Shown here: piece by piece, positions 23,877 to 39,679 of the stretch | Position numbering within the stretch: position 1 is the first letter of the stretch | How the letters are laid out: each line of letters starts with the position of its first letter | Origin: Acidimicrobiia bacterium UBA2766 | Lineage (GTDB): Bacteria > Actinomycetota > Acidimicrobiia > UBA2766 | Length of the DNA stretch: 64,000 bases | NCBI GenBank assembly: GCA_002352645.1 | Contig: DEIU01000010.1 | Location: 138,348-202,347 of the forward strand | Reading direction: 5' to 3' | Made by a program: the position numbers and the translations under genes | Notes under the pieces: generated by a model | Database searches by the model: none | Seen by the model: only the letters and a program-made list of their open reading frames with translations | Told to the model about the DNA's origin: nothing

Positions 23877-24086
23877 CAAATCTCCTCTCAAGGCCAGAAT
23901 CTCCGTCCTTCCTGTCTCTTCGCTTTCTTTCGGAGCTCACAGTTGGGACTCACGCAAGGTTCTGGAATCTCTCTGCACCTTCCGTAAAGGCTTTTCTCGT
24001 TTCTGCCTTCTCCCCACGCAAAAAACGTTTCCCACACTGCATCAATCAGCACACACACTCACTTTCCATACCTTCCATCGGAAAGC

Positions 24087-26696
24087 TTACGAACCGTCCT
24101 TGAGGAGACTGCACGCAAGATCAACCTCTTGTTCCATAAGAAGGCGCAAGTCGAGTTGGGAACACGCCAAGTTGTATCCCGCTACGGACAACTTTTTGTG
24201 CGCAATATCATCGGAAACGAGGCTGCATACCGCACTTGTGGCTGCCGCAATATCTCCTAACGGATACGCAGCCACGACTGCAGGATCTTGCGCGATAAAC
24301 CAATCAAAACGTTCCAAAGTTGGAATAATCGCCGGCGTCCCACGCGAAAACGCTTCGACCACCGTTTTTTGCATACCCTCAGTCACTGAAGTAGAAAGCA
24401 GTGCAATCGCGCTATCCATGTGGGAAAGCATCTCGCTATGCGGCAAAACACCCAGAAAACGGCCTCCCGTTTCTGCAAGACGCTCACGCTGCGCAACAGA
24501 AAGCGAACCTGCCCCAATCACTGTTAAAGCACAACCGCTGCGCGCTGCAATCTCGATCGCGTCATCGACCCGCTTCTCCGCAGAGATCCTGCCTACCCAG
24601 AGAAGCCCTGTCCGGGCAGATCGAAGAAGCGGAGCAGGCGCTACTTCAGCTCCATTCGGAATAACCACAAGAGCAGCATCCCGCGCGCCAAACTCCGCGG
24701 CATCGGCCCGCAGCCTCTCGGTCGTCACAATGACACGTTCCATCTGCGCCAGGCCCACACTGAACAAAGAGGAGAGCAGCTTCGCGCGCAATGTATGACC
24801 GTGCAACTGCGACAATCCCACATAGTCATACCCATACGTCACGACCGTGTGCGCGCCTTGCAATTTTTTTCCCAGATACAAACTTCCTACAGCGGTTGCC
24901 TGCATACCCCGCCACACAGGAAAATTTCCTTGTCGCGCCAGTACTATCCCAGCAAGAAACGACCAGACCCATCCCCAATACTCAGCAAGCACAACACGCG
25001 GAGCACAAAGAAAATCCACACCTCGCGCAGTCAGTAATTCTTCTTCGCGCGCACGCGCCCCACACGACAAAATGCCGACGCTGAATCCTCGATCGCGATA
25101 ATATCCCACCCAATACCTGAAAAAACGCTCAAGCTGACCATTACGCCAAAGAGATTCCAGACTCCCTCCCGGAGGAAGCACGAAGAGGACAGCCGGAGAA
25201 AGAGTCTGAAGTTTTTTGTCTCCCCGCCGGGTTTTCGGGCTTTTCCCTGGTTTTCGCGATTTATTCACCAACCTTGCGAACTTCGATGCCCCTTGTGATG
25301 CCTCGTCCTCCATTACGGCAACCCCCGCGCCAGTCACTTGGTGGGCACCCGCCCCTACCGACTTCCCCTGTGCGCGTAGTGCAGTCAAAAACCGGTCGGC
25401 AACAGCCGCAGGAGCGAACTGTGTGTCCACCCAAGCCCGCGCCGCAGCCATATCGAATTCCCCGGCAACAAGCTTGCGCCGCGCCTCTTCAAGTCCCTTT
25501 GCAAAGTCACCGGGGGAACAGGAGGAAACGACGATCCCGCCAGTGGGGGCAACAGCTTCCCTGGTCCCGCCACGGTTCGTCGTGACCACTGGAGTGCCCA
25601 CCAACTGCGCCTCAAAAGCCGTACGAGGCAGAGCTTCAAGGGAAACAGAGGGGACAACAACAAGATCAGCGCGGGACATCACCGCAAGGGCTTCCCGGTG
25701 CGACACACGTGGACGGCGATCCAACAAAGGGGACTCTTGCGTGTCGCCCAGGGCACCATATGCCGAGAACTTCCACCCAGCCTCAGCGGGCAGTAGTCGC
25801 ATGGTCTCGCACAAAAGACCAGCACCCTTGCCTGGACTGCCACGTCCCATAAATACCACCCGGCATTCGTCCACAGAGGGACGGGAAGCAAGATGCCCCA
25901 CTCCATCCAAAGACGGAACAGGATTCCCAATCGCCACAGCCTCTTTTCCGGTCCGTTCCTGCCATGCGTTTGCCAGGTCCTGACTCACGCTCAACACCTG
26001 ATCGACAGCCCGCAATCCAGAACGCAACAAACCTGCATAAAGCCATCGTTGAAAAAGACCTATTCGGTAGGCCCCTCCCTGGCGGGAACTGGCATAACGC
26101 TCCATATACTCACCCGAGCACGTCTCAAGGAAACGTCGAGTACCACAATCGGAATAGGGCGTGCCTCTCGTAAGACGGCAGGTATGGATGGGACACCACC
26201 ACCCATGATCTCGCATCACAGCGGCAACACGGGGACGTTTGCCAGGAAAAGCGAGCCGCGCTCCAGCCACAGCCCAGGGGACAGCGTCGGAAGAGCTCGC
26301 AATGACCCAGTCTGGCGAAAAGGCCCGGACATGCTGCCCAACGGCGCGAACCGCAGCAGGGAGCAAACGAATGCGATCAGCATAAGAACGTCCGGTGCGC
26401 CCTCCTGCACCAAAGAAAAAACTCTCGCCCGGACCTTCGGAATCTACCGATTCATTCGTCGAATCTTCTGAGGAAGATCCCGACCAAACACCTTTCTCAG
26501 GCGGAGAGCGCCAAGCCGGAGCAAGGCGACGCACCTGGGCGCTGCGCGCCAAAGTATCGGCCAGAATGCCCCCGCTCACCTCCGCCCCTCCAATTGGTGC
26601 CGAAGGAGAAAACGCGAAGATCACAAGGAGGCGAAGAGACGAGGAAGATTGGCCTGTGCGAACCTTGACGGACACAGGAGTCAGGTCATGCGACAC
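24087..26696 (-). CDS. Double glycosyltransferase: two GT4 (GT-B) modules in one 869-aa polypeptide
   Basis: Two separate E-x7-E regions ('SLEALPRTAFEAQLVGTPVV' and 'VTEGMQKTVVEAFSRGTPAI'), joined by a basic linker 'NKSRKPGKSPKTRRGDKK'. Confidence 0.8.
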   Translation of the reverse strand: MSHDLTPVSVKVRTGQSSSSLRLLVIFAFSPSAPIGGAEVSGGILADTLARSAQVRRLAPAWRSPPEKGVWSGSSSEDSTNESVDSEGPGESFFFGAGGRTGRSYADRIRLLPAAVRAVGQHVRAFSPDWVIASSSDAVPWAVAGARLAFPGKRPRVAAVMRDHGWWCPIHTCRLTRGTPYSDCGTRRFLETCSGEYMERYASSRQGGAYRIGLFQRWLYAGLLRSGLRAVDQVLSVSQDLANAWQERTGKEAVAIGNPVPSLDGVGHLASRPSVDECRVVFMGRGSPGKGAGLLCETMRLLPAEAGWKFSAYGALGDTQESPLLDRRPRVSHREALAVMSRADLVVVPSVSLEALPRTAFEAQLVGTPVVTTNRGGTREAVAPTGGIVVSSCSPGDFAKGLEEARRKLVAGEFDMAAARAWVDTQFAPAAVADRFLTALRAQGKSVGAGAHQVTGAGVAVMEDEASQGASKFARLVNKSRKPGKSPKTRRGDKKLQTLSPAVLFVLPPGGSLESLWRNGQLERFFRYWVGYYRDRGFSVGILSCGARAREEELLTARGVDFLCAPRVVLAEYWGWVWSFLAGIVLARQGNFPVWRGMQATAVGSLYLGKKLQGAHTVVTYGYDYVGLSQLHGHTLRAKLLSSLFSVGLAQMERVIVTTERLRADAAEFGARDAALVVIPNGAEVAPAPLLRSARTGLLWVGRISAEKRVDDAIEIAARSGCALTVIGAGSLSVAQRERLAETGGRFLGVLPHSEMLSHMDSAIALLSTSVTEGMQKTVVEAFSRGTPAIIPTLERFDWFIAQDPAVVAAYPLGDIAAATSAVCSLVSDDIAHKKLSVAGYNLACSQLDLRLLMEQEVDLACSLLKDGS

Positions 26697-26879: not shown

Positions 26880-28364
26880 TTAAACGGAAATATCTCGCAA
26901 AATATGCTGCGAATTTGCCGAAGTGTCTACGACATTATCCAAGGACATTGTCGCAACATAGTCGTCTGTCACAATCCCAAAAATCCGCGCGAATGTCCGC
27001 ACTACAATACGGAAGTCAAGAAAAATAGTCTGATACTTAATATACCAAAGATCACGCTCGAACTTCGCCACGTTTGTCTTTAGATCATGCGCATATGGAG
27101 CAGTAATCTGCGCCCATCCAGTAATCCCAGGCCGTACCATATGGCGCATGTTATAGAAGGGGATCTTCTCTGTAAGATCTTCAACAAACTTTGGTTGCTC
27201 TGGCCTTGGACCTACCAAAGACATTTCCCCACGGAGCAGGTTCAGAAATTGCGGAAGCTCATCTATATGAGAAAGACGTAGAAACTTTCCCACCCGTGTC
27301 ACACGAGAATCACCAGGCTTCCACACGCGCTGTTCCTGCACATCCTCCACATACATACTACGAAATTTCCACAACAAAAATCTCTCCCCACCAGCTCCAA
27401 TGCGCCATTGTTGGTACAGTACGGGGCCAGAAGAGTCCAACTTCACAAGTAGGCCAAGGGGAAGATACAAAAGCAAAAAAACGCACGTTCCAAGAAACCC
27501 AAAAAGAAAGTCGACCACTCTCTTTTGCACTCGGAATATCCTTTTGTGTATTTCACAAATATCCAGCAAAAACCACTGATACGACAAACTGGACTGGGTG
27601 ATTTTACAAAAAACTTTCTCATATACATCCGCGGCCATACGTACAGCAACACCTGACATATTGACCATCACGATAGCGTGCAAAAGTTTTGAATCTCCCA
27701 GCACGCCCTCATCAATAATGACCAAAGATGGCATCTCCATAAGTAGATAACGCGCAATAATTTTCGCATTATCATGCACAAATAAATCAGTATCGATAAA
27801 TGAGAAATTTTCCAGACGAGGGTCACTCATAGAAGCAAATTGTGCCCGCATATCCTCCGCAACAGCAGATGAGCCAAGAAAAAGTATACGACAGTTTTCA
27901 TGTTTTCTCCGCGCGAAACAAAGCACAAAAAAACGAAGAGTGGCCATACCGGAAATAAGAGGAAAGCCTGCACCAAGAAGAAGAGATCTCGGTAATACTT
28001 GCACCCCAAACATCACCTGAAGCAAGGAAAGAATCCCGAGAGCAGTTGCGTAACCAATAGTGGCTCGTCCAAACGCTTCAGTCACAGAACTCCCACGATA
28101 GGCATCGAGTCCATAAGAAACTGATGCCAGCCCCCACGCCAATATCCCCAAGAAAACAGCAGCACCATAATTCATCAGACTCGGAGTCTGCTCATGCACA
28201 TTCCCATGCACCCATAGCCAGAAACAGGGGACGACAAGACTCCAGATTCCGGCGACAAAAGTCGCGATCCTGCCCAAGCGTTTCCCTTCATTGCGTTCAT
28301 TGCGACAGACAACAACAGACTGACCGGAAACCTCATCGAAAACCTTCGGGTCATTTCCAATCAC
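26880..28364 (-). CDS. Priming polyprenyl-phosphate glycosyl-phosphotransferase (WbaP/EpsL-type, Bac_transf domain)
   Basis: N-terminal TM bundle. C-terminal 'KRVVDFLFGFLG...', 'LWKFRSM' and 'DELPQFLNLLRGEMSLVGPRP'. Confidence 0.9.
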   Translation of the reverse strand: MIGNDPKVFDEVSGQSVVVCRNERNEGKRLGRIATFVAGIWSLVVPCFWLWVHGNVHEQTPSLMNYGAAVFLGILAWGLASVSYGLDAYRGSSVTEAFGRATIGYATALGILSLLQVMFGVQVLPRSLLLGAGFPLISGMATLRFFVLCFARRKHENCRILFLGSSAVAEDMRAQFASMSDPRLENFSFIDTDLFVHDNAKIIARYLLMEMPSLVIIDEGVLGDSKLLHAIVMVNMSGVAVRMAADVYEKVFCKITQSSLSYQWFLLDICEIHKRIFRVQKRVVDFLFGFLGTCVFLLLYLPLGLLVKLDSSGPVLYQQWRIGAGGERFLLWKFRSMYVEDVQEQRVWKPGDSRVTRVGKFLRLSHIDELPQFLNLLRGEMSLVGPRPEQPKFVEDLTEKIPFYNMRHMVRPGITGWAQITAPYAHDLKTNVAKFERDLWYIKYQTIFLDFRIVVRTFARIFGIVTDDYVATMSLDNVVDTSANSQHILRDISV

Positions 28365-28660: not shown

Positions 28661-29764
28661 ATGCAAGAAGCACGTCAGGCAACAGACAAGAAAATCGGGC
28701 TTGCGATCGGCAAACCGATCCGCGGAGGCTTCACTGCCCTGCTCGAAGAATGCCGTGATCTTGCAAAGTTAGGGTGTTCTCTCGCAGTCCTATCGCAAGA
28801 AGGCCCGCGGCTCGCCGAGCTGCCCGACGAAACAAGCGTCACGATCGTCAATGCCCCACGTCAGGCTGTTGGCTCCTGGATGCAGGCGATTCGACAATGG
28901 CACCGCAAAGAAAATCCCGGCCTCGTGCATTTCCACGGTCGCCAACTGGGTATATATGGCAGAATCGCTCTCGCAACCAAAAAAAGCCATATCGCCTATA
29001 CAGCCCACGGCGGGTTCCCCCCTGTCACCCCCGTCGCACGCCACACCGAACAAGTCATCCAAAAACTCCTTCGCCACTCCACCAGCATTTACGCGATGGT
29101 AGGCGAGGGTGAAACACAAGAATGGGAACACGAATACGGGTACGGCTCAACCCCCCACATCTTGCTCCCACACCTCATTGCCCCGGAGGCAGTACGCGCG
29201 GAGGCGAAAAAACTCTTCCCACTCCCCTCATTATCGGAAGCGACAGTTCTCGCACCTGGAGCGTACCATCCTCAAAAGAATTTTGCTGCCTGCCTGAAAG
29301 CACTCGCTCTTCTCGGCGACAATGCCCCTTCTCTGGTTTTTCTCGGCAACTCCTCCTGGGACCGGGGAAAACACCGAGCATCCCTGATCCTGCTCGCTCG
29401 CTCCTTGGGCATCACGAAAAAAGTACACTTCGGCGAAGAAATAGCCTGCCTGCCCGCATGCCTGCAGAGAGCAGAACTCGTCTTACTTCCCTCCTCTCAG
29501 GAAGGCCGCCCCATTGTGGGACTCGAAACCTGCGCTCTCTCCTCCCCTGTTGCCTGGTCCGATATTCCCGGTCACCGAGAAATTTTCGCTCCCTACGGCA
29601 AGGCATTTCCTCCGCAGAACCCAGAAGCCATTGCCGCGATCCTCGACTCGCCCACAAGCTGGCCATCTCTCGCTCCACCCCCAGCACACGCCGAGAGCAT
29701 GCACCAAAAAGCGACCGCGCAACGCGAAACCAGCCTCCGCTCTCTTTGCACGCTCGCAAGCTAG
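28661..29764 (+). CDS. GT4 glycosyltransferase
   Basis: 'LLPSSQEGRPIVGLETCALSSPV' E-x7-E region. A GGGAGG RBS lies ahead of ATG 28661. Divergent from the priming transferase. Confidence 0.8.
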   Translation: MQEARQATDKKIGLAIGKPIRGGFTALLEECRDLAKLGCSLAVLSQEGPRLAELPDETSVTIVNAPRQAVGSWMQAIRQWHRKENPGLVHFHGRQLGIYGRIALATKKSHIAYTAHGGFPPVTPVARHTEQVIQKLLRHSTSIYAMVGEGETQEWEHEYGYGSTPHILLPHLIAPEAVRAEAKKLFPLPSLSEATVLAPGAYHPQKNFAACLKALALLGDNAPSLVFLGNSSWDRGKHRASLILLARSLGITKKVHFGEEIACLPACLQRAELVLLPSSQEGRPIVGLETCALSSPVAWSDIPGHREIFAPYGKAFPPQNPEAIAAILDSPTSWPSLAPPPAHAESMHQKATAQRETSLRSLCTLAS

Positions 29765-29839: not shown

Positions 29840-32248
29840 TCAGGAATGATCTGTATCCGACTTCCCTACCGACAAAGCAGCCCAGAGATTCTCCGTAAAA
29901 GCCTCTGTCGAAAAATCTCCAGCACGAGAAAGGCCGGCAGCACTCCACCGCCGTGCTGCCGCATCATCCCATTCGGCTAAAAGCTCAAGCATCGCGTGCA
30001 CATCCCCCTGATCCACCAACGCCCCGGCCTGTCCGTCGAGAAAAAGCTCAGACACCCCAGGTACGCGAAAAGCCACAACAGGAAGACCACGCTGCATGGC
30101 CTCCAATCCCACAAGAAAAAAACCCTCCACCAGAGAAGTGCACACCAGCACATCAGCCTCATCAAAACAGGGCGCGAGGTCGGGTACCCGCGCGCGCACT
30201 TTCACTCCAGCCGCAAGCGCTTCAGCCCGCACCACTTGCTCGCAGGGACCAGCCCCGATCATCAATGCCCGACAGGGCCTGCGGGCACGCAACTTGCGAA
30301 AGAGTTCAAGAAAAATAGCAGGACGCTTACGTTCAATAAACTGTCCCACAAACAAAAGACGCAGCTCCTCCCCATGTATACGTTCCCGAGGGGAAAGAGC
30401 GGACAGCACGGAGGGAACCGCGTTCGGCACTACAAAGATCTTGCTCTCATTGCATCCCGTTTCCCGCGCCAAAGCACTTCGGGTGCTAAAACTCGGAACA
30501 ATCACGCGATCCACTCGCTCCAGCACGCGATGATCCAGGTTTTTTCTCCAACGGGGACGAGAAGTGTCCAAGGCACCATCGGCTTCCACATGATGCACAT
30601 GGAGGACGGTACGCACTGGAGTTCCCGTCCAAGCTGCAAAATAGGCTGCGAGTATGCCCGGAACGCCAAGATGGCTCAAGCTGTGCAAGCGGAGCACGTC
30701 AATCTGGTAACGCTTGATATCCCAGAAAAGCTGTAAAGGCAAATAGAGCGCAAGCAATGCAGGCCGGTTGCCTTTCGGGGCCCAAAGCCTGCCAATAGCA
30801 GCCCGCTCCCATGCCGCGCGAGAAACCCCCACAGGACACCGGTCGGGAACACAAAGTTGCTCTCCCCCACGGGCAGTCAGCCGCTTCTGCCCCCAGGGCA
30901 ACAGGACCCGCGCTTTCCCCCCTTGCAGCAGTGCAGCCACCCCAATCTGTTCATACCGCATCCCACCCGTCACAGGGGGAACAAACCATCCTAGTTCTGG
31001 TGACAAAACCTGAAGATTAATGCCCTTTTCACTGTGTTTTTCAGAGGATTGCAGCGCAAGCGCCCGCGGAGGTGAGGAAACCTCGCGCGCAAAAAGTGTG
31101 CGTGCCAGACGTCCGCCACGGTTCGCGCCTGCTTGCACGAGCTGCATCCCCGCCGAACGCAAAAACGCAGACTTTCCATGGCGCAGACGCCTCCCGTACG
31201 GCAACTGCGCAGAAAAAACACGATCGAACAAGTCTGCAGAACCTGACCCAAGAGAACGCCAGTCACGCACGTAACCATCAGAAAAATCCCGTACCGTGTC
31301 GTCAAAGTCAGTGAGATCAAGACGGAACGCGCCCCAAGCTTCGGCACGCGGGGCAGGAAGGCAAGCCGCCAAGTGCAAAATAGCCGCCATTCCCGTAAAA
31401 AGGTCTTCGGAACAGCCAACAAGAGCGGACATACCGGCAGCAGTAAGTTCTTCAAGAAGCCGCAAAGCCCGCAAAGGGCCACCGAGACGCGCAAGCTTGA
31501 CATTCACCCCATCAAGACAGCCCACGGCGAGCGCAGCCGCGAGCTCCTGTGGCCGAGCCAAACTTTCATCACCGACAATTCGTATACCGGTCTCACGTCG
31601 TAAACGCTCCCAAGTAGTGGGGCGAGCACAGGGTTCCTCAATCCACTCACCTCCCAGGTCTCGGAGCAAGCGGCAGAAGGAAAGCGCGCTGTCTTCGTCA
31701 GCATAGGCACGGTTCGCGTCGACTCGGACTGCCCCGGGCGGAAAGAGCGGAGATACCGCACGCAACAGAGCCGCATCAGCAGCAAAGTTTCCGCTCACTT
31801 TTACTTTCACTGCGCAAGCCCCGAGAGCGGCAAGTCGTGCAGCTTCGCGTGCTCCTGTTGCCGGATCAGTAAACCAAATGAGGCATTCTGCTTCAACCGG
31901 TCGCACAGGCCAGGATTCTTCCTGCGCCTGCACAAGATCGAGCAAAGCCAAAGTCACCGCGCCGGTGATGGTGACATCGTCAGGAAGCCGATCGAGTGAA
32001 ACGGAACGCCCGTTCTGGGCATCAGCCCAGGCCAGCCGGCCGGCCGGCCATCCATGATAAGAGGGGACAACACCGATACCGAGAGAATCCCGGCTTACAA
32101 AAGCAACAGCAAAATGCCACGACCATAAGGCAGTTTGGCGACCGTAGCGGAAACGAACAGGAAAACACAGCGCTGCGGCGTCCACAAGGCGGGCGTTCTT
32201 CGCAGCGATCTCGAGACGATCCGTCAGCTCATCAGCAACAAAGACCAC
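29840..32248 (-). CDS. Fusion protein: enolase-superfamily (MLE-subgroup-like) barrel plus C-terminal GT4 glycosyltransferase
   Basis: N-terminal half: 'AVKVKV' (KxK), 'VDAN', 'IEEP', 'GDES' and 'VNVKLARLGG', in the canonical order of enolase-superfamily ligands and bases. C-terminal half: 'CTSLVEGFFLVGLEAMQRGLPVV'. The ORF runs 802 codons without interruption. Confidence 0.75.
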   Translation of the reverse strand: MVFVADELTDRLEIAAKNARLVDAAALCFPVRFRYGRQTALWSWHFAVAFVSRDSLGIGVVPSYHGWPAGRLAWADAQNGRSVSLDRLPDDVTITGAVTLALLDLVQAQEESWPVRPVEAECLIWFTDPATGAREAARLAALGACAVKVKVSGNFAADAALLRAVSPLFPPGAVRVDANRAYADEDSALSFCRLLRDLGGEWIEEPCARPTTWERLRRETGIRIVGDESLARPQELAAALAVGCLDGVNVKLARLGGPLRALRLLEELTAAGMSALVGCSEDLFTGMAAILHLAACLPAPRAEAWGAFRLDLTDFDDTVRDFSDGYVRDWRSLGSGSADLFDRVFSAQLPYGRRLRHGKSAFLRSAGMQLVQAGANRGGRLARTLFAREVSSPPRALALQSSEKHSEKGINLQVLSPELGWFVPPVTGGMRYEQIGVAALLQGGKARVLLPWGQKRLTARGGEQLCVPDRCPVGVSRAAWERAAIGRLWAPKGNRPALLALYLPLQLFWDIKRYQIDVLRLHSLSHLGVPGILAAYFAAWTGTPVRTVLHVHHVEADGALDTSRPRWRKNLDHRVLERVDRVIVPSFSTRSALARETGCNESKIFVVPNAVPSVLSALSPRERIHGEELRLLFVGQFIERKRPAIFLELFRKLRARRPCRALMIGAGPCEQVVRAEALAAGVKVRARVPDLAPCFDEADVLVCTSLVEGFFLVGLEAMQRGLPVVAFRVPGVSELFLDGQAGALVDQGDVHAMLELLAEWDDAAARRWSAAGLSRAGDFSTEAFTENLWAALSVGKSDTDHS

Positions 32249-32314: not shown

Positions 32315-34315
32315 TCATCGCGGCACGGCGTAGAAGCACCAGCCGGTTGTATCTTGTGGTCGGCTTTCGACCATGTGTTGTTTCCATCGACGCGCGAGCA
32401 GTTCATAAGCGCAAAGTGATAGGCCGCCAATGATATCTATCAGGCCGGCAAAAGCTGTGTCATACGTAATCGTGCAAACTTTTTTCACATTAAATCCCCC
32501 CTTTTCAACCTCTGCTATCGCCTCTTCAAAGGAGTATTCAATCTTATGATCTGGATCTATTTCGCTTGGAAGATCATAAGACCGAAGAAGCCGCCTCCAG
32601 CGCGTCTCAGCGTTGGGCAAAGTTAAAAGAAGCGATCCATCAGGACGCAAAAGACGGGAGCATTCATCGAGGAGTTCTTGACGTAAGAAAATGTGTTCAA
32701 GCACATCAATAAGCAAAATAACATCAACAGAGTTATCAGAAAACGGAAGTTTATTCTCAAAGTCCGCACATATCACGGGAATAGTAGAAACAGCGTGTCG
32801 TAGATCCTTTTCTGATCTATCGGCGCCAAAAACACGGCAATCCAAGCTCTGTGCGATTCTTGCATGTGCACCCTGGGAGCACCCTAGATCCAGCACTTCC
32901 TGATTGGGTCGGAGCAATTCCTCATACCATTGGCCGCCTTCTCGGCCTACAAGATGTTTTGGATGGATCGGGATAGGGTTCTTACCCGTCCAGTGCGTAA
33001 GACGTACTGCGCCCGATTTCGCGTGACGGTTCACAAACTGAAAGCACCGTAGTCCCTCTCTTTTCAGGAGTTGCACGCTTCCTCTGCGCAGTTCTCCTTC
33101 TGCTCTGCCTGCCTTTTGTCCCTCCACATCCGCATCCACAGGTGGGGTCATCGCACGCGCGGGAACCTTGCGCGCGCGTGAAAGGGAGAAGGGGGAAAGC
33201 ACGAAAGAAGGGGACGTACTTTTTTTCCGCGCCAGTAAACTGGCGTAAATCTCCTGGGTACGTTCAGCCATAATGGCAGTGCTCGAACGAGAACGGGCAA
33301 ACCCTATCGCACGATCACGTATCTCAATGAGTTCTTCTTGGTCTTCACACAGGCGTAGCACACCATCCGCGAGGGCACGTGCCGAACGGGGCGCCACCAC
33401 AACACCGCACCTTTCCAAGGTGTAGAGGAAGGCATCCCCCGCATCCGAGACGACAGGAACAAGTCCCTGCGACATCGCTTCCAAGGTCGCCATCGTGCAT
33501 CCTCCTTCTGCCCGTGTGGCAAGCAGGAAAATACTGCAACGAGATTGCAATTCCGAGAGGTCAGGCACAAAGCCATGCACGGTGATCTGCTCCCTCGCCG
33601 GAGAGGCAGCCACTCGTTTTCGGACACGGCCGGCGAGAGGCCCCGTCCCACAAATATGCAGTTCAGCATGGGGAATACGGGCAACCACATGCCGCCAAGC
33701 GTCCACGGCCAAAAGCGGTTCTTTCGGATAGGCAAGGCGCGCCACCCAAAGAACGGAGCAAGTCGGAACTGCCGGCGAAATCGGAGCAGTAGATACGGGA
33801 ACAGCATTGGGCACAGTGAATACAGGCACACCGCGAGCCAACTTGGCGAGCAGGGGAACATCACGGGCCCCAACCGTGAGCACACCATCAAGACAGCTCA
33901 GGCTCAACTGCTCCACAGGACGGGCCAAAAGGCGATGCGACATTTTCCGTCCAGGACCGAACGCGGCATGATGGCAGGTAAAAACAGTGATCCGCCGATC
34001 GCTCCCAGGAAGGCCCCGCCCCAGGACACCAGCCTTTGTCGTGTGCAGATGCAGCACGTCAGGAGCGAACTTCTCCACATATCCGGCCAGTTGGCCACGC
34101 GCTTTCCAGTCTTGCAAAGGGCGAGGAGAACTCACGAGACCAGGCCAGTCGAAAATTTCTACGCCTTCGTCTTGGAGACGCTCTGCAAGCGGGGAAGCAG
34201 CATCTACTGCGAGGCCAACTTCCCAACCTCTTTCAAGTAGTCCCCGCGACAAAAGGGCCACATGTTCCTGCGCCCCTCCAACTTCACCCTTTGCAATGGC
34301 GAACAAAACTCTCAT
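32315..34315 (-). CDS. Fusion protein: N-terminal GT4 glycosyltransferase plus C-terminal class I SAM-dependent methyltransferase
   Basis: 'MRVLFAIAKGEVGGAQEHV' and 'ATRAEGGCTMATLEAMSQGLVPV' (GT4). 'VLDLGCSQG' motif I and 'DVILLIDVLEHI' (methyltransferase). Confidence 0.8.
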   Translation of the reverse strand: MRVLFAIAKGEVGGAQEHVALLSRGLLERGWEVGLAVDAASPLAERLQDEGVEIFDWPGLVSSPRPLQDWKARGQLAGYVEKFAPDVLHLHTTKAGVLGRGLPGSDRRITVFTCHHAAFGPGRKMSHRLLARPVEQLSLSCLDGVLTVGARDVPLLAKLARGVPVFTVPNAVPVSTAPISPAVPTCSVLWVARLAYPKEPLLAVDAWRHVVARIPHAELHICGTGPLAGRVRKRVAASPAREQITVHGFVPDLSELQSRCSIFLLATRAEGGCTMATLEAMSQGLVPVVSDAGDAFLYTLERCGVVVAPRSARALADGVLRLCEDQEELIEIRDRAIGFARSRSSTAIMAERTQEIYASLLARKKSTSPSFVLSPFSLSRARKVPARAMTPPVDADVEGQKAGRAEGELRRGSVQLLKREGLRCFQFVNRHAKSGAVRLTHWTGKNPIPIHPKHLVGREGGQWYEELLRPNQEVLDLGCSQGAHARIAQSLDCRVFGADRSEKDLRHAVSTIPVICADFENKLPFSDNSVDVILLIDVLEHIFLRQELLDECSRLLRPDGSLLLTLPNAETRWRRLLRSYDLPSEIDPDHKIEYSFEEAIAEVEKGGFNVKKVCTITYDTAFAGLIDIIGGLSLCAYELLARRWKQHMVESRPQDTTGWCFYAVPR

Positions 34316-34606
34316 GCCGGCCTCTTTACTTTCTTCTCGGCCCGGCTCCCATTGAGTAAAGTAAAAAACCCGGTGAAACTACATTGAAGTCTTTTTTTAC
34401 CGTTTCGCTCTTCCTTAACTCAGGGAACTGCTTCGGTCCTCCGAACACATTCAAAGTAACGATAAAACAGTTGTTCCCCTCTCCTTTTCAAAAAGTATGC
34501 ATTCCTCTCTGGTGCGAGAGAGATTGCTGAGAGATGTCATACTCTAGCGAGAAAATGACGAAAGAAATACACAAAGAAAGTGTCCGGTTTTCACGTGTTT
34601 TGCTCC

Positions 34607-36754
34607 ATGAAAAGGAGAAAAAAAGATCAAGAACCCAAAGAAAAACCCATACATTTTTCTTGTGTGACGATTCCGGGTGCAGCTTCTGCGGCTTCCTTCC
34701 CCTCATCTGCACCCTCGTCCTCCCCGCCCGACCCCTTGCAGCAAGGACAGGAGCAGGACGAGCAGCAAAATGAGGAGCAGCAAAACACGAAAAAGACAAG
34801 ATTTCTCTGCACCTCCCAACGAAAAAGACGAGTCTGTGCTTTTCTCGCTGTCTGCATCGTGCTTGGCATCGGGGGCAGAAGTGGCGAGCGACTCCTCTTT
34901 GCCCACACGGCACTCTTGCGCGCAAAAGCAGGCTTGGACAGCTTGCGGCAGCAGGGGCCTGAACTTCTGACATCAGACGCACAGAGCGCGCAAGCGAAAA
35001 CCCGCCTCCATACCGCAGAAAAAGATTTACGTGCGGCACAAGATGCCCTTTCTACTTCGACTGGGATCTGGATCTTGCGGCGTCTTCCCGTCCTCAAGCA
35101 GAACTTTCGTGCGCTCGACCAAATGATTGAAATGGCTGCGGTCACTGCAAACGCCGGGGAAAAGGCACTGGGAGCGATCGAAAAAGCCCGCTTGGCAACC
35201 GAAGGTGACATGCTTGCAATGCGAGAGGGAGCAGTTGACATGAGCCCACTCTCCACTGCACTACCAGGTCTACAAGACGCTCTGTTCCTTCTCGAAACCG
35301 TCGCTCCCGCGGCGACCGCACTCACGCAAAACCCTCCGGTTGGCCCTGTCGGAGACGCGGCAACTCAAGCGGCCCGCGCTTTTTCTTCTCTGCAAGAAGA
35401 CATGCGCCGGGCCGTCGCAAGTATTACCTTGCTGCCTGCAATGCTCGGCATAAGTGTGGAAGAGACTGCGCAGCAGCAGAAGGGATCAGGTGGCAGGGAG
35501 AGTCCCAGCGAAGAAGACAGGGGACGCCGTTATCTGCTCGCTCTGCGAAATAATGCGGAGCTACGCGCAGACGGCGGGATGGTTCTCTCCACTGCCACAC
35601 TCACTGCAGTCAATGGCAAGATCAGCATTACCGATGCGAAAAGCGTGGGCGATACTTCCCAAGAAAAAGAAGATATAAATATCGACGTTCCATCATGGTA
35701 TCGCCTTGCCTACGCGCCTTACGGTGCGCTGCAAATCTTTCAAAATGCCACAATGACTGCCCATTTCCCCACTGCAGCCTCAGTCATGGCAGCCCTACAC
35801 GAACGTCATACAGGTATGCCCGTCGACGGAGTGATCACTATTGACCCTGTAGGACTGCGACCTTTACTCGCGGTAACCGGCCCAGTCCAGGCCCAAGGGT
35901 ATGAATTCACTGCAGAAAATGTGACAGATCTCGCTTTGAACAAGCTCTATCTCTTGAATGACCGTTCCAAAGTGCGTCGACGCGACCTCATTGCCGAAGT
36001 CACCGCGACGATTTTCACGCAGCTCACAACGGAAGTCTGGGACGAAAGAGCCATGGCACACGCGGTCACGACTGCAGTGGCAGGCGGGAACATGCAAATT
36101 TGGATGAAAAATCCACAGGAACAAGCTCTTGTCGCCCAACTTGGGGCCGCCGGTAATTTTGCCGAAAGTAGTGGAGGTTTTCTCCAAGTAGCTGTGCAAA
36201 ACACGGGTGGCAACAAGCTTGATTATTTTTTGCAACGATCAATCTCGCACCAGATCGATCTCCACCTCGACGGAAGTGCTACTTTCTCCACCACTGTAGA
36301 AATCAAGAATCCCGTTATACCTGCACAACCCGACTATGTAGTAAGCCCCAAAGCACTCACACACTTCGGGATTCACCCCGGTACACACCAGGCCATATCT
36401 GGCATTTACGTCCCGGAAAACGCCCGGCTCACAGGATGGGAAACTCCAGGAAGTACCCCACGCGTGACACGCGAAGCAGGCGCCCTCTCCCTCTCTTCTT
36501 GGGTACTCATCGCTCCAGGCGAAAAAGTGTCTGTCACATTCCACTATGCAGTCGATACTTTTCCTCAGGATTGGCGGCAATCCCTCGCGTTTGAACTGGT
36601 CTTTCAACCGCAAGCAACGATCACCCCAGATGTGATTGACATCTTGCTCCGGGCACCAGAGAAGTGGAAAGTCACCGGCAACCGGACATGGCATGGGCGC
36701 GTCCATATGCACAAGACTCGCACAGTTCAGATCCCTCTCACCCCTCCCTGGTAG
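34607..36754 (+). CDS. DUF4012-like membrane-anchored protein
   Basis: Basic N-terminus, acidic/Gln-rich segment, one TM ('VCAFLAVCIVLGIGG'). 'LLALRNNAELRADGGMV' matches the DUF4012 hallmark as I remember it. I prefer ATG 34607 over the ORF opening at 34580. Confidence 0.6.
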   Translation: MKRRKKDQEPKEKPIHFSCVTIPGAASAASFPSSAPSSSPPDPLQQGQEQDEQQNEEQQNTKKTRFLCTSQRKRRVCAFLAVCIVLGIGGRSGERLLFAHTALLRAKAGLDSLRQQGPELLTSDAQSAQAKTRLHTAEKDLRAAQDALSTSTGIWILRRLPVLKQNFRALDQMIEMAAVTANAGEKALGAIEKARLATEGDMLAMREGAVDMSPLSTALPGLQDALFLLETVAPAATALTQNPPVGPVGDAATQAARAFSSLQEDMRRAVASITLLPAMLGISVEETAQQQKGSGGRESPSEEDRGRRYLLALRNNAELRADGGMVLSTATLTAVNGKISITDAKSVGDTSQEKEDINIDVPSWYRLAYAPYGALQIFQNATMTAHFPTAASVMAALHERHTGMPVDGVITIDPVGLRPLLAVTGPVQAQGYEFTAENVTDLALNKLYLLNDRSKVRRRDLIAEVTATIFTQLTTEVWDERAMAHAVTTAVAGGNMQIWMKNPQEQALVAQLGAAGNFAESSGGFLQVAVQNTGGNKLDYFLQRSISHQIDLHLDGSATFSTTVEIKNPVIPAQPDYVVSPKALTHFGIHPGTHQAISGIYVPENARLTGWETPGSTPRVTREAGALSLSSWVLIAPGEKVSVTFHYAVDTFPQDWRQSLAFELVFQPQATITPDVIDILLRAPEKWKVTGNRTWHGRVHMHKTRTVQIPLTPPW

Positions 36755-37164: not shown

Positions 37165-37698
37165 ATGCCCGTGAAACGTTTCATTCTTGCACTACTAGGA
37201 GGAGTCGGTCTATTTCTCCTCTTCTTCGTTCCATCTGCACAAGCGGAAACTTGCGAGCCTTACAGCAATTCCTGTGGGACCCCCATCACACCAAGTAACA
37301 CCGAACCTGCAGCTGGTGAGGCAGTCAACGTGAACACAGCACCAGGAACTTTTAAGGGGGGAGACCAAGTCTCCTGGAATTTCAATGGCCTGTCCGTAGG
37401 GGCAAGCGTGGCTGCAGCAGACGGTTCCACAAGCTTCACCTTTGCTATTCCCCCAGGCACCGCGCCTGGTTGTTACAACCTCGTCGGTAGCGACGCATCC
37501 GGTCACCAGATTTCCAGCCTCATTTGTGTCCCCGATCCGCACACTTCCAACACTTCACACAGACGCCTGCCTTTCACTGGGAACCGAGACGGACTCGGTA
37601 GCCAAGTTGCCATTGCCTTTGGTTTGCTCACAGCAGGAGCAAGTGCATTGCTTCTGGGAAGACGGCACCGTCGCACACACCTCCCCATCTCTGACTGA
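37165..37698 (+). CDS. Secreted LPXTG-motif cell-wall-anchored protein
   Basis: Signal peptide ending 'VPSAQA'. C-terminal 'LPFTG' (37567-37581), then a hydrophobic stretch and an 'RRHRR' tail. An AGGAGA RBS is present. Confidence 0.8.
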   Translation: MPVKRFILALLGGVGLFLLFFVPSAQAETCEPYSNSCGTPITPSNTEPAAGEAVNVNTAPGTFKGGDQVSWNFNGLSVGASVAAADGSTSFTFAIPPGTAPGCYNLVGSDASGHQISSLICVPDPHTSNTSHRRLPFTGNRDGLGSQVAIAFGLLTAGASALLLGRRHRRTHLPISD

Positions 37699-37850: not shown

Positions 37851-37897
37851 GCGTGAATTCAAACCTCGTGCTACCTCTGTTTTCTAAGGACATTATT

Positions 37898-39679
37898 GTG
37901 AAAGAAGCCGAAAACGCGAATGAGCTTCTCACCTATTTCCAGACAGTCCTCCACCACAAACTGCTCGTCGCTCAGACTTTTATCATGACTGTTCTCGCCG
38001 TTTTCCTCTTCTCCACTCTGCAGACTCCTCTCTACGCAGCCTCGGCGGCTCTCGTGGCAAGTCCACCCGACTATTCCGGCATATTCACGAACGCGCCGCT
38101 GCGCGGTATCTCTCGTGATCCCATGCGACGTATAGCCACCCAAATTGAAATGTTCTCCAGCCTGGAAGTGGCAAATACCGCGGCCAAGCTGCTACAAGAA
38201 GACCAAAAAACTGTGCAAGACCTCCTTCACAACACAAAGGTCTCACAAGTTGGACAAACAGACGTGCTGAAAATACAGGCGATCGACCCAGACCCGGAAA
38301 GAGCTGCGGTACTCGCGAACGCGATGGCTGATGCCTTTGCAACCTTCCAAGCAAACCGGTCTGTACAAACTATTACGCAGCTCACTGCAGAAATTTCCAG
38401 CAAACTGGAAGAAGCACGCAACCATTTAAGCGAACTAGACGGGTCCCTCGCAGCAGCACTCGCAGCCCGTAATGCACAAGAAGCGGAACGGCTCATGGCC
38501 GAACGCGACGCGATCGTACGAAAAACACATGACCTCGATGGGCAGGTAGACTCCCTGCAAATTCAAGCAAGTCTGCAGCAACAGCAACTCTCCATCATCG
38601 AGAGAGCTGCTGCACCCGATAGCCCTTCCTCACCGCGCACCAAACGAAATCTGTTCTTGGGCGGTATCGCAGGCGTGATCATCGGCGTGGGACTTGCCCT
38701 TCTCAAAGACTTCCTTGATGACAGCGTACGCGACCTTGCATCCTTGGAAGAGCTCGGCGGAATTCCTGCCGTTGGCGTGATTCCGAACATCTTCCCGGAT
38801 CAAAAGAAAAAGCACGCCAGCACAGCTCCCGCGATCGCGCAAATGCAAACACCTGCAGCAGAGGCGTTTCGTCGCTTGCGTACAAACCTGCAGTTTCTTG
38901 GGTTGGACCAGCCCATTCGCGCACTGGGCATTACGTCAGCGCGCGCGAATGAAGGAAAAAGCACTGTGATCGTCAACTTGGCAGCGTCGCTCGCGCACGC
39001 AGGCCTCCGTGTAATCATTGTCGGTGCCGACCTGCGAAAACCTTCCCTGCATAAAGTGTTCCACACACAAAACAAACAGGGACTTTCCACTCTGCTCACA
39101 GGAAAAATCAGAGTAGAAGACGTCCTCATTCCTGTCACCGTGGACGGGACACGCACACAGCTCTGGTTCCTCCCTTCAGGGCCAATTCCTCCGAACCCTG
39201 CCGAGCTGCTTGGATCAAAACGCATGGGAGAAATCATTACGGACCTCACGAATCGCTGCGATCTCCTTTTGTGCGACATGACGCCAACCCTACCAGTATC
39301 AGACGCATGCGTACTCGCACCAAAGCTCGATGGCGTGTTACTCCTCGCAAAAGCAGGGGTGACAAAACACAACGAGGTCACCACAACACGGGACTCCCTG
39401 ACAAAGGTCGGAACCCGACTACTCGGCGTCATCCTGAACCAAGTCGATGCCCACAGCACCAATAATAAGTATTCGTACTATTACGATTATGCCTACAAAA
39501 CAGAAGAAGAGGACAAAGACTCAACAACCACACCTACCACAGACTTCTCAAGCCCATTCCAGACCTCTTCCTCGCCGCTCTTCCCCCTTCCACAAGGCCA
39601 GACAAACCCAGCCAAACACTCCAAAACCACCACACCCTCGCTCTCCAAAGACCCCTCCTCCTCTATCCATCTCCCCTAA
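37898..39679 (+). CDS. Polysaccharide co-polymerase (Wzz-like) fused to a BY-type tyrosine autokinase
   Basis: Two TM segments flank a coiled periplasmic-type domain. Walker A 'SARANEGKST' and tyrosine cluster 'YSYYYDYAY'. I prefer GTG 37898 (AAGGA 7 nt upstream) over GTG 37853, which abuts the hairpin. Confidence 0.85.
   Translation: MKEAENANELLTYFQTVLHHKLLVAQTFIMTVLAVFLFSTLQTPLYAASAALVASPPDYSGIFTNAPLRGISRDPMRRIATQIEMFSSLEVANTAAKLLQEDQKTVQDLLHNTKVSQVGQTDVLKIQAIDPDPERAAVLANAMADAFATFQANRSVQTITQLTAEISSKLEEARNHLSELDGSLAAALAARNAQEAERLMAERDAIVRKTHDLDGQVDSLQIQASLQQQQLSIIERAAAPDSPSSPRTKRNLFLGGIAGVIIGVGLALLKDFLDDSVRDLASLEELGGIPAVGVIPNIFPDQKKKHASTAPAIAQMQTPAAEAFRRLRTNLQFLGLDQPIRALGITSARANEGKSTVIVNLAASLAHAGLRVIIVGADLRKPSLHKVFHTQNKQGLSTLLTGKIRVEDVLIPVTVDGTRTQLWFLPSGPIPPNPAELLGSKRMGEIITDLTNRCDLLLCDMTPTLPVSDACVLAPKLDGVLLLAKAGVTKHNEVTTTRDSLTKVGTRLLGVILNQVDAHSTNNKYSYYYDYAYKTEEEDKDSTTTPTTDFSSPFQTSSSPLFPLPQGQTNPAKHSKTTTPSLSKDPSSSIHLP

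Follow-up and report, generated by a model that had tools for sequence, protein, structure and literature searches.

The enolase superfamily serves as a textbook example in enzyme-function prediction. Its members remove a proton from the carbon alpha to a carboxylate; in a uronate, H5 is in this position. To our knowledge, the known members act on small soluble acids, and the fold has never been linked to glycans. The characterised enzymes closest to the protein described below are the N-succinyl-Arg/Lys racemase of Bacillus cereus (NSAR/OSBS; 2p88), the o-succinylbenzoate synthase (OSBS) of Thermobifida fusca (2opj/2qvh), and the dipeptide epimerases. The enzymes that invert the carbon next to the carboxylate of a uronate have other folds: GlcE is an (alpha/alpha)-toroid, and AlgG and AlgE are beta-helices. 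Agl32, a uronate C5-epimerase encoded within a glycosylation gene cluster, has alpha-helical enzymes of the AGE superfamily as its closest structural homologues (PMC13308652).

We describe here a gene in which an enolase-superfamily barrel is joined to a GT4 glycosyltransferase. It occupies positions 29840..32248, on the minus strand, of the 64-kb stretch of DNA that was analysed (the window), and encodes 802 aa in a single open reading frame with a GTG start. The in-frame fusion claimed in a preliminary description of this DNA is thus borne out, and the strand can now be added. Other features of the window (PAC2, DUF4012, DUF501 and an LPFTG protein), together with the best aconitase hits, suggest an Actinomycetota-like lineage; the closest aconitase is 63% identical, and neither this gene nor the fusion protein matched a genome of the same genus in the contig collection searched. 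That description knew of no glycan pathway with such a joining; in agreement with it, our literature search found no published description of an enolase-superfamily domain combined with a glycosyltransferase, and no NCBIfam model reaches its cutoff for the fusion protein.

Architecture of the fusion protein

All features of the fusion gene given below lie on the minus strand. The GTG start matches the N-termini of the orthologues in an alignment, and the purine-rich sequence GAGAGAGAA is located 5-13 nt upstream of it. A scan for promoters and terminators around the gene gave nothing above chance. In the protein, residues 1-335 make up a complete enolase-superfamily fold of the muconate-lactonizing enzyme (MLE) subgroup, and residues 410-802 an intact GT4. 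The fold begins with the capping (alpha+beta) domain (residues 1-117; 31898..32248), which is delineated by the secondary structure of the AlphaFold2 (AF2) model and by Foldseek alignments that span whole chains of the MLE subgroup. This domain carries a clade-specific motif, FRYGRQxALWSWH (residues 33-45; 32114-32152), that is invariant in the five fusions. It is followed by the (beta/alpha)7beta barrel (residues 118-335; 31244..31897), with a Pfam MR_MLE_C match of 1.9e-31 over residues 133-328 and pLDDT values mostly >90. The two halves are connected by a basic linker (residues 336-409; 31022..31243) of low pLDDT, in which a long helix is predicted at 359-389. The linker is the least conserved part of the fusions, with 26-39% identity, and the alignment reveals a tail resembling it in the free-standing barrel P0018.

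The barrel half and its subfamily

The N-terminal half belongs to the MLE subgroup of the enolase superfamily and has the full KxK/D/E/D/K set. The motifs AVKVKV (146-151), VDAN (176-179), IEEP (203-206), GDES (226-229) and VNVKLARLGG (248-257) match the catalytic positions of the T. fusca OSBS 2opj one for one (E 2e-19), well beyond what chance would give. Both the presence and the order of the motifs noted earlier are upheld, and they fall on true catalytic positions. The catalytic and metal residues span 31496..31807: K148 (31805-31807) and K150 (31799-31801) of the K148-V-K150 motif on strand 2, D177 (31718-31720), E204 (31637-31639), D227 (31568-31570), and K251 (31496-31498) on strand 6. 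The three lysines align with those of characterised MLE-subgroup enzymes, and D177, E204 and D227, at the ends of strands 3, 4 and 5, with the metal-ligand motifs of 2opj, 3rit and 3jva. The structure prediction suggested in the preliminary description gave an AF2 model of residues 1-347 with a pLDDT of 88.7 and a pTM of 0.88; Foldseek matched it to full-length MLE, AEE and NSAR structures at TM 0.70-0.80, the best being 2p88 at 0.80. Pfam, the PDB alignment, AF2 and Foldseek agree on the MLE subgroup that had been named before, with the addition that the barrel is not an OSBS orthologue. Judged by these residues, the barrel is probably catalytically competent.

The fusions make up one clade within a broader barrel subfamily, as yet without a name, that is tied to glycan clusters. 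The subfamily, of about 40 clusters in size, was sampled with 41 representatives, each at most 50% identical to the others. Wherever a representative covers the position, K148, K150, D177, E204, D227 and K251 are retained, and N249 and R254 are further active-site residues that are invariant across the subfamily. There is also a signature of its own at 31319..31420, made of V-G278-C279-S-E281-D282 on strand 7 and E303-x-x-G306-x-x-R309-L310 on strand 8 in the subfamily alignment. G278, C279 and G306 are found in 41/41 representatives and E281, E303 and R309 in 40/41, while position 282 is D or E in all 41. This signature (G-C-x-E-[DE] and E303...G306...R309) is missing from the bona fide OSBS in the same alignment. 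The conservation of both the catalytic set and the signature across the 41 representatives indicates purifying selection on the active site. Seven tryptophans (W42, W44, W125, W202, W213, W305 and W330) are invariant in the fusion clade, but not subfamily-wide. In a tree, the subfamily forms a clade separate from the OSBS outgroups with a modest bootstrap of 64/100. The nearest characterised proteins in a profile search were the racemase 2p88 (226 bits), the dipeptide epimerase 3jva (196 bits) and 1jpm (181 bits); muconate cycloisomerases also rank near the top by fold and by profile.

The glycosyltransferase half

The C-terminal half is, by its sequence, assigned to GT4, a retaining family of GT-B fold. 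Its N-terminal Rossmann domain (residues 410-615; 30404..31021) matches Glyco_transf_4 at 5e-14 over residues 482-611 (53.1 against a gathering score of 28.5) and contains the GG loop at 428-429 and HVHH at 550-553; a lineage-specific insertion of low pLDDT is seen in the alignment within residues 452-494 (30767-30895). The C-terminal Rossmann domain (residues 616-802; 29843..30403) matches Glycos_transf_1 at 1.4e-22 over residues 622-760 (80.5 against 26.4). Here are located the R640/K641 pair and the E-x7-E motif, EGFFLVGLE, at residues 708-716, the coordinates of which (30101-30127) were verified. The G428-G429 loop, R640/K641 and E708-x7-E716 are invariant in 5/5 fusions, and the description of this half as a normal GT4 with its E-x7-E region holds.

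The best glycosyltransferase matches are the BshA and MshA structures. Neither identity can be adopted: the scores are 68.8 against a cutoff of 273.7 for BshA and 50.4 against 462.5 for MshA, and the context is a polymer cluster, probably of the Wzy type, not a thiol pathway. The GT half forms a narrow clade. Its only free-standing orthologues are P0283 and P0284, and the next scores are at most 96 bits. P0283 shares 48-52% identity with the GT halves of four fusions; no free-standing barrel was found upstream of it on its 4-kb contig, where the upstream partial ORF is another GT4. The closest non-fused relatives among those tested are the partner GT4 of locus L093 (32%) and a 373-aa GT4 of the L089 cluster (31%).

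Occurrence and origin of the fusion

The same 802-aa product was recovered as eight variants, at least 99% identical, from NCBI, ENA, JGI, Logan and GEM assemblies. The architecture recurs, in a continuous frame, in four more fusion lineages, with 40-47% identity in each half. In all, the architecture is found in 5 clusters among 1.84 billion (1.84e9) representative proteins; it is neither common nor already characterised. The possibility that neighbouring genes were merged artificially, through misassembly or a frameshift, can be given a negligible probability. Nothing was found in its favor; the linker is the least conserved stretch and has low model confidence. Against it stand the eight independent assemblies, the unbroken frame in four diverged orthologues, with no stop or frameshift between the halves in either, and the identities of the two halves, which co-vary with r = 0.89. 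The fusions together with P0018 form a clade with a bootstrap of 90/100. The fusion arose once, and its halves have co-evolved.

It is worth pointing out that the covalent linkage is not required, since each half also has a free-standing descendant, P0018 for the barrel and P0283 for the GT half. When the full-length protein was modelled with AF2 using the five fusions, each domain was folded but their packing was not (pTM 0.49); the inter-domain geometry is not predicted, and channelling between the two sites is thus unsupported.

Gene neighborhood in the window and related loci

The fusion gene is surrounded by genes for polysaccharide assembly. Directly upstream, after a 66-nt gap, a 666-aa fusion of a GT4 with a Methyltransf_11 SAM methyltransferase is encoded at 32315..34315 (minus), the methyltransferase half of which is orthologous to a separate methyltransferase of L094 (34% over 251 aa, E 9e-37). 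The convergent neighbor is a 367-aa GT4 at 28661..29764 (plus) with full-length orthologues in L006 and L089 (tblastn 38-39%). Farther along the minus strand are the priming polyprenyl-phosphate glycosylphosphotransferase (Bac_transf, 26880..28364; Pfam 1.7e-56; 290 bits with TIGR03025, just below the cutoff of 295.55), an 869-aa double GT4 fusion (24087..26696), whose two halves are encoded separately in L005 and L006 (tblastn 37-43%), and a 290-aa GT2 (23019..23891) with an orthologue in 4/4 compared loci (L005, L006, L089 and L090; tblastn 40-46%). On the plus strand, a 724-aa DUF4012 protein (34580..36754; Pfam 2.8e-33) marks the cluster edge, and a chain-length regulator or tyrosine-kinase-like protein with GNVR and P-loop domains is encoded at 37853..39679; these assignments, like those of the glycosyltransferases and the methyltransferase, are from Pfam. 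The window thus contains Bac_transf, at least seven GT domains, DUF4012 and a Wzz/kinase-like gene. Nearby SDR genes are assigned no further than epimerase/dehydratase.

The 64-kb window has no detectable homologue of Wzx or Wzy. In each of the other four fusion loci a Wzy can be recognised, together with a flippase or a flippase-like multi-TM gene; the flippase-like gene of L005 has no Pfam match. The priming Bac_transf and the orthologous GT2 and GT4 genes are common to the clusters of all five fusions. Four of these are Wzy-type polysaccharide clusters, and that of the window, the one without detectable Wzx/Wzy, is probably of this type too.

The free-standing members of the barrel subfamily are found in similar company. 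A GT4 is adjacent to the free-standing barrel in seven of the eight informative loci, and on this ground the fusion is considered the joined form of a conserved barrel-GT4 gene pair. In five of the eight (L093, L095, L096, L098 and L099) the GT4 directly follows the barrel on the same strand, and a divergent GT4 is found beside the barrel in L089 and on the P0019 contig. In L096, genes for a FemAB/FemX-like aminoacyl transferase and for a CE4 deacetylase come after the pair. In the window and in L005, L089, L094, L098 and L099, a methyltransferase gene is no more than a few genes away from the barrel or the fused GT4, or forms part of the upstream GT4 protein; one is also near the free-standing GT4 orthologue in L097. 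We considered the methyltransferase as an obligatory third partner and rejected it: there is none in L006, L091 and L096, and the orthology is only partial, which makes this an association and not a rule.

No men genes were found in the window or in the related loci, where the partners are glycosyltransferases and methyltransferases. Genes for a UDP-sugar 6-dehydrogenase (ugd), a pyruvyl transferase, an enolpyruvyl transferase, a MurA/MurB-like protein or an amide ligase were likewise missing from every locus seen. Since these would be the carboxylate-forming genes, there is no local evidence for a carboxylate on the glycan.

Possible functions of the barrel

The reading we favor, with slightly less than even confidence, is that the protein is a cytoplasmic, bifunctional enzyme of a Wzy-type pathway, in which a Mg2+-dependent epimerase, working on a carbon beside a carboxylate, is coupled to the GT4. 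The nature of the reaction, its substrate and which step comes first are inferred, as is the activity of the barrel. The GT4 half would add one sugar to a lipid-linked (polyprenyl-phosphate) repeat unit. In the barrel, D177, E204 and D227 would hold Mg2+, which in turn would bind the carboxylate of a building block; the favored candidate site is C5 of a hexuronic acid, carried on a nucleotide sugar or a lipid-linked oligosaccharide. Of the opposed lysines K150 and K251, one would take the proton next to the carboxylate, and the other would return it on the opposite face, amounting to epimerisation by 1,1-proton transfer. The GT4 step, immediately before or after, would then lock the epimer into the glycan. 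Such coupling would account for the constant adjacency or fusion of the two activities. Epimerisation is preferred because the nearest characterised profile relatives, 2p88 and 3jva, are 1,1-proton-transfer enzymes. It should be noted that the two-lysine set is also kept in non-epimerising OSBS and cycloisomerases, and these residues alone cannot separate epimerisation from elimination. A bolder and rather doubtful proposal is that the barrel is the founding member of a new class acting on glycoconjugate building blocks, for example a cytoplasmic hexuronate C5-epimerase, whose substrate would be a UDP-uronic acid or an undecaprenyl-diphosphate-linked oligosaccharide and whose reversible product the GT4 would trap. 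The preliminary guess of an epimerised or dehydrated carboxylate being channelled into the polymer can be kept as far as the link to glycan assembly goes, which the subfamily-wide pairing of barrel and GT4 supports; its chemistry is still conjecture.

The substrate could also be a non-sugar carboxylate, with the barrel as its racemase or epimerase and the GT4 handling the carrier sugar. Candidates would be an N-acyl amino acid with a free carboxylate, for instance an amino acid amide-linked to an acyl or uronyl group of the glycan, or a hydroxy-acid aglycone. The nearest profile relatives (2p88, 3jva and 1jpm, at the scores given above) do use N-acyl amino acids or dipeptides, E303 is at the position of the first Asp in the D-x-D ammonium-binding motif of the dipeptide epimerase 3jva, and there are the FemAB/FemX-like transferase and the CE4 deacetylase after the pair in L096. 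However, the D-x-D motif itself is absent, all named racemase and epimerase NCBIfam models are far below cutoff, no fusion locus has an amide ligase or ATP-grasp gene, and FemX-type enzymes use up the carboxylate of the amino acid, leaving none free for the barrel; we regard this substrate as unlikely. Less likely still is a beta-elimination, dehydration or cycloisomerisation, for which OSBS, MLE and cis-3-hydroxyproline dehydratase are the precedents, and which would give the GT4 an unsaturated or deoxy-keto acid sugar to use or accept. The KxK/D/E/D/K set also supports reactions of the OSBS, MLE and dehydratase types, OSBS gives the best single-sequence matches in the PDB and NCBIfam (2opj, 2e-19; PRK02901, 71.5 bits), and the muconate cycloisomerases rank high in fold and profile. 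Yet the OSBS and cycloisomerase models are far below cutoff (71.5 against 288, 63 against 130.55 and 37-137 against 335), the strand-7 and strand-8 residues of the subfamily are not those of OSBS, and we know of no precedent for 4,5-unsaturated uronates built biosynthetically into glycans.

The same OSBS matches could be taken to mean a true o-succinylbenzoate synthase of the menaquinone pathway, fused to a glycosyltransferase by chance. This is hardly credible: the scores of 71.5 against 288 for NF002782, 63 against 130.55 for TIGR01927, 44.5 against 236 for NF003473 and 33.6 against 200.65 for TIGR01928, the lack of men genes in the window and related loci, and the modestly supported separation from the OSBS outgroups (64/100) all speak against it. 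A barrel that has fallen silent, serving to bind a carboxylate or sugar, or as a scaffold that places the GT4 acceptor or assembles a glycosyltransferase complex, appears very unlikely, though less so than a chance OSBS. Pseudo-enzyme domains do occur in multi-domain glycosyltransferases, and the many invariant aromatics could indicate carbohydrate binding, but these aromatics are limited to the fusion clade, and the conservation of the six catalytic and metal residues and about ten active-site residues in the 41 representatives is hard to explain without catalysis.

What the favored epimerase reading builds on is a subfamily with a conserved active site that has a genomic tie, covalent in five lineages, to a specific GT4 in polysaccharide clusters; this pairing points to chemistry beside a carboxylate during glycan assembly. 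The fused and split forms together identify both partner proteins, the barrel and the GT4. If confirmed, the activity could explain where certain rare stereoisomers of acidic sugars or substituents in bacterial surface polymers come from, and would provide a new enzyme type for glycoengineering.

Comparison with known systems

The B. cereus racemase 2p88 has the same MLE fold along its full length (TM 0.80) and gives the best profile match (226 bits); its KxK/D/E/D/K residues occupy identical positions, and on strand 8 it has a Glu where the fusion has E303. It differs in being only about 19% identical, in lacking the G-C-x-E-[DE] and R309 signature, and in being a free-standing metabolic enzyme with no GT partner that is not found in glycan clusters. 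The T. fusca OSBS (2opj/2qvh; NF002782) is the best single-sequence match (E 2e-19), and all five catalytic motifs align. In strands 7 and 8, however, it has S-S-A-x-D/E-T-S-V-G and C/Q-G-L-G in place of the G-C-S-E-D and E-x-W-G of the fusion, for which the score is 71.5 against a family cutoff of 288 and the menaquinone gene context is missing.

The L-Ala-D/L-Glu and related dipeptide epimerases (3jva, 1jpm/1tkk and 3rit; 150-196 bits) are alike in fold, in the catalytic set and in the 'GC..E' motif of strand 7. Their D-x-D ammonium-binding motif is replaced by E303-A-W305 in the fusion and by E-x-[WVLI] in the subfamily. With this motif absent and a score of 41 against the cutoff of 343 for NF011708, the barrel was not accepted as a dipeptide epimerase; these enzymes serve murein-peptide recycling, unlike a barrel of glycan clusters. 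On the glycosyltransferase side, BshA, MshA, PimA and the GT4s of EPS clusters share with it the two Rossmann-type domains, the GG loop, the R/K pair and the E-x7-E motif. The fusion is set apart from them by its N-terminal enolase-superfamily domain, and the named GT4 models are far below cutoff.

The proposed chemistry, an inversion next to the carboxylate of a uronate, is that of heparosan GlcE, archaeal Agl32 and alginate AlgG/AlgE. These enzymes have unrelated folds outside the enolase superfamily and none is fused to a glycosyltransferase, and the likeness is one of functional hypothesis, not of homology. Should the barrel be a C5-epimerase, it would be a third independent solution to uronate C5-epimerisation, after the GlcE/Agl32 type and the AlgG type, and would connect the enolase superfamily with glycan assembly for the first time.

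A single barrel-glycosyltransferase gene product

The fusion gene is one open reading frame of 802 residues (29840-32248, minus strand) with a GTG start, which is preceded at 5-13 nt by a purine-rich stretch, GAGAGAGAA. As the preliminary description had it, an MR_MLE-type barrel and a GT4 glycosyltransferase are joined in-frame: Pfam found MR_MLE_C (residues 133-328, 1.9e-31), Glyco_transf_4 (482-611, 5e-14) and Glycos_transf_1 (622-760, 1.4e-22) in this one frame, and no signal peptide or membrane segment was found in the fusion protein. The barrel motifs quoted there were all located, AVKVKV at residues 146-151, VDAN at 176-179, IEEP at 203-206, GDES at 226-229 and VNVKLARLGG at 248-257, as was the E-x7-E motif of the GT4 half (EGFFLVGLE, 708-716). 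The top PDB match of the protein in phmmer is the Thermobifida fusca o-succinylbenzoate synthase (OSBS) 2opj (E 2e-19), and all five barrel motifs align with its catalytic motifs, which bears out their reading as catalytic positions.

A frameshift or stop between the two halves had been a concern, and no frame break was seen. The 90%-identity cluster of the protein has eight members, drawn from NCBI, ENA, JGI/IMG, Logan and GEM assemblies; each is 802 residues long, and they are at least 99% identical, differing by a few substitutions with the frame unbroken. The uninterrupted two-domain frame is also present in four diverged orthologues, P0002 (788 residues), P0003 (752), P0138 (756) and P0140 (730). 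Over the ten pairs of fusions, identity is 41-53% in the barrel and 40-52% in the glycosyltransferase, the two values being correlated (r = 0.89), and is lower in the linker, at 26-39%. The chance that the fusion is an artefact is close to nil.

Structure prediction agreed with the assignment of the barrel half to the muconate-lactonizing (MLE) subgroup of the enolase superfamily. The AlphaFold2 model of residues 1-347, built from a 108-sequence alignment, is confident (mean pLDDT 88.7, pTM 0.88) and shows a barrel of eight strands with a capping domain. Its Foldseek matches in the PDB are MLE-subgroup enzymes only, aligned from end to end with TM 0.70-0.80 and a sequence identity of about 20%; among them are chloromuconate and muconate cycloisomerases, dipeptide epimerases and the N-succinyl-Arg/Lys racemase 2p88. 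In a full-length model from a five-sequence alignment (pLDDT 73.9, pTM 0.49), both domains are folded and a long helix is predicted at residues 359-389; the model is unreliable for the linker, for the packing of the domains and for an insertion specific to this lineage within residues 452-494. The insertion, seen against the other fusions, falls in a stretch of the GT4 N-domain (window 30767-30895, minus strand), is rich in Cys and Arg (…CVPDRCPVGVSRAAWERAA…) and has low model confidence.

All five fusions keep, in the GT4 half, an invariant GG loop (428-429), HVHH (550-553), R640/K641 and E708-x7-E716. A profile search for its free-standing orthologues returned only P0283 (473 bits) and P0284 (312 bits), after which the scores fall to 96 bits or less, those of generic GT4s. 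Four of the fusions have GT halves that share 48-52% identity with P0283, which matches the level among these halves themselves.

A rare and unnamed barrel subfamily

An HMMER search with a profile of the barrel half covered 1.84 billion representatives of clusters made at 50% identity. Good full-length scores, above roughly 150 bits, were reached by about 40 clusters, and below this the matches grade into proteins that resemble OSBS or epimerases in general. No more than five clusters are of fusion length, so the architecture is not a common one; two of them, newly found, were confirmed by Pfam to carry MR_MLE_C and GT4. The remaining clusters are free-standing proteins of 344-427 residues, for which the relatives with named genomes are Chloroflexota/Anaerolineae MAGs and Thermoleophilia (Gaiella; Conexibacter is only distantly related).

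Both domains are from known superfamilies. No NCBIfam model approaches its cutoff with the window protein or five other members: the window protein scores 71.5 against OSBS model NF002782 (cutoff 288) and 63 against TIGR01927 (cutoff 130.55), and the muconate cycloisomerase model gives the five others at most 137 (cutoff 335). NCBIfam therefore has no name for the fusion or, more widely, for the barrel subfamily that is tied to glycan clusters.

The alignment of 41 subfamily representatives gives a signature. K148, K150, D177, E204, D227 and K251 are kept in each representative covering the position; G256, G257, G278, C279 and G306 are present in all 41, and N179, N249, R254, E281, E303 and R309 in 40, with residue 282 being Asp or Glu throughout. 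When the subfamily profile was searched against the PDB, the racemase 2p88 ranked first (226 bits), followed by dipeptide epimerase 3jva (196 bits) and chloromuconate cycloisomerase 1nu5 (186 bits).

Split and fused forms

The free-standing barrels often have a GT4 next to them. It lies directly downstream on the same strand in L093 (barrel P0139), L095 (P0141), L096 (P0143), L098 (a Chloroflexota MAG) and L099 (an Anaerolineae MAG), and adjoins the barrel divergently in L089 (P0018) and on the P0019 contig; at L100, from a Gaiella MAG, no adjacent GT4 was seen. Of the unfused proteins tested, the partner GT4 of L093 (32%) and a 373-residue GT4 of L089 (31%) come nearest to the fused GT half.

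In a neighbour-joining tree the five fusions and P0018 form one clade with a bootstrap of 90/100; monophyly of the fusions alone has a bootstrap of 0/100. This indicates that the fusion arose once and that P0018, on which a linker-like tail is still present, later lost its GT half. The window protein is the first branch in the unbootstrapped tree, a placement with a bootstrap of only 46/100.

At L096 (1583-4570), of the Chloroflexota-type branch, the genes after the barrel-GT4 pair encode a FemX-like aminoacyl transferase (127 bits against NF047883, cutoff 500), a CE4 polysaccharide deacetylase and another GT4. This order of GT4, deacetylase and amino-acid adder calls to mind how mycothiol and bacillithiol are made. 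Of this set only the partner GT4 and a second GT4 were confirmed at L099 (6665-9428). At L100 (5239-6912), an SDR epimerase/dehydratase and a PF12708 protein lie downstream of the barrel homologue, the latter domain being the pectate-lyase-like "rhamnogalacturonase A/epimerase"; lyases and epimerases of uronate polymers are among the members of this fold family.

The glycan gene cluster and its relatives

Around the fusion gene, the window encodes an SDR epimerase/dehydratase (19762-20751), a GT2 (23019-23891), an 869-residue GT4-GT4 fusion (24087-26696), a Bac_transf priming enzyme (26880-28364) and a 666-residue GT4-Methyltransf_11 fusion (32315-34315), all on the minus strand, and a 367-residue GT4 (28661-29764), a DUF4012 protein (34580-36754) and a Wzz/tyrosine-kinase-like protein (37853-39679) on the plus strand. 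With the barrel-GT4 gene, the cluster thus carries three fusion genes. Unfused halves are found in related loci, GT4 and Methyltransf_11 in L094 and GT4 and GT4 in L005/L006, and the window lineage seems prone to fuse consecutive glycan-assembly enzymes. Two unannotated ORFs (16525-17595, 356 residues; 18615-19382, 255 residues) match no family, and each has one hydrophobic segment, at the N-terminus. Between the DUF4012 and Wzz/kinase-like genes lies a 177-residue protein (37165-37698, plus strand) with a signal-peptide-like N-terminus and a C-terminal LPFTG, hydrophobic stretch and basic tail, that is, a sortase-type anchor. Together with PAC2, DUF4012 and DUF501, this anchored protein suggests a monoderm, Actinomycetota-like organism. 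The aconitase has no more than 63% identity to that of any species representative.

The loci of the other four fusions (L005, L006, L091/L092 and L094) each have Bac_transf, Wzy_C, a flippase or flippase-like multi-TM gene and many GTs. Within the 64-kb window, neither Pfam nor tblastn with the L005 Wzy and the L006 flippase gave a Wzx flippase or Wzy polymerase homologue. Three window GT genes have tblastn orthologues in L005, L006 or L089, the GT2 at 40-46% identity, the 367-residue GT4 at 38-39%, and the double GT4 in both of its halves; related repeat units are therefore built. A Methyltransf_11-type gene is often near: in L005, L089, L094, L098 and L099 it is only a few genes away from the barrel or fused GT4, in L097 one lies near the free-standing GT4 orthologue, and in the window it is fused to the upstream GT4; none was seen nearby in L006, L091 or L096. 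Conserved proteins of about 710 residues, 43-51% mutually identical, occur in L089 (5981-8122), L091 (4045-6177) and L094 (2133-4271). They have an N-terminal GT4 and a C-terminal region of about 330 residues with no confident Pfam match, which is a stand-alone 343-residue gene in L005 (13559-14590); no counterpart of this region was found in the window.

The window has 53.6% G+C, against 65-68% in the other fusion loci. Every 2-kb bin has a negative GC skew (-0.05 to -0.26), the AT skew is mostly positive and the long genes are mostly on the minus strand, which places the window within one replichore or points to a strong gene-strand bias. A single tRNA-Leu (anticodon TAA; 46830-46916, minus strand) was the only RNA family at gathering score. 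The 325-residue ORF at 6447-7424 (plus strand) matches ribosomal protein L31 in its last 80 or so residues only (232-310); the true start is probably downstream of the one called.

Possible roles of the barrel

In the enolase superfamily, a base takes a proton from the carbon adjacent to a carboxylate, and a Mg2+ ion held by the D/E/D residues stabilises the enediolate that arises. Two lysines serve as bases in the MLE subgroup, the second one of KxK on one face and that of strand 6 on the other. All these residues are invariant here, the characterised enzymes closest by profile are racemases and epimerases of the two-base kind, and the barrel is locked to a GT4 inside lipid-linked glycan pathways. 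We tentatively propose, as a reading that may well prove wrong, that the barrel is a cytoplasmic epimerase for a building block that bears a carboxylate and that the adjoining GT4 step would fix the product. C5 of a hexuronic acid would be the chemically most natural target, and epimerisation may take place at the level of the nucleotide sugar or of the lipid-linked oligosaccharide. Counting against an epimerase, no UDP-sugar 6-dehydrogenase or other carboxylate-making enzyme is encoded in any of the loci, and the nearby SDR genes are not assignable to a function.

A non-sugar substrate, of the amino-acid or hydroxy-acid type, is favoured by the NSAR and AEE relatives and by the FemX-like and CE4 deacetylase genes of L096, and is still unlikely in our judgement. 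We would give elimination, dehydration or cycloisomerisation a small chance. The catalytic and metal set (KxK, D/E/D and strand-6 Lys) is invariant in the subfamily; a barrel kept as a silent binding module is quite improbable. Bona fide OSBS differ, in the 41-representative alignment, by lacking the strand-7 G-C-x-E-[DE] and strand-8 E..G..R motifs of the subfamily, and that the barrel is a true OSBS is scarcely credible.

Comparison with known systems

The preliminary description knew of no glycan pathway in which an enolase-superfamily barrel is joined to a glycosyltransferase, and a full-text literature search likewise found neither the fusion nor the glycan-cluster-tied barrel subfamily. 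The two together are a concrete, testable lead for enzyme discovery. To our knowledge, none of the uronate epimerases Agl32, GlcE and AlgG is in the enolase superfamily, and the folds of GlcE and AlgG are unrelated to its barrel. Agl32, a characterised uronate C5-epimerase of a glycan pathway, is likewise of another kind, its structural homologues being AGE-superfamily-like and alpha-helical (PMC13308652).
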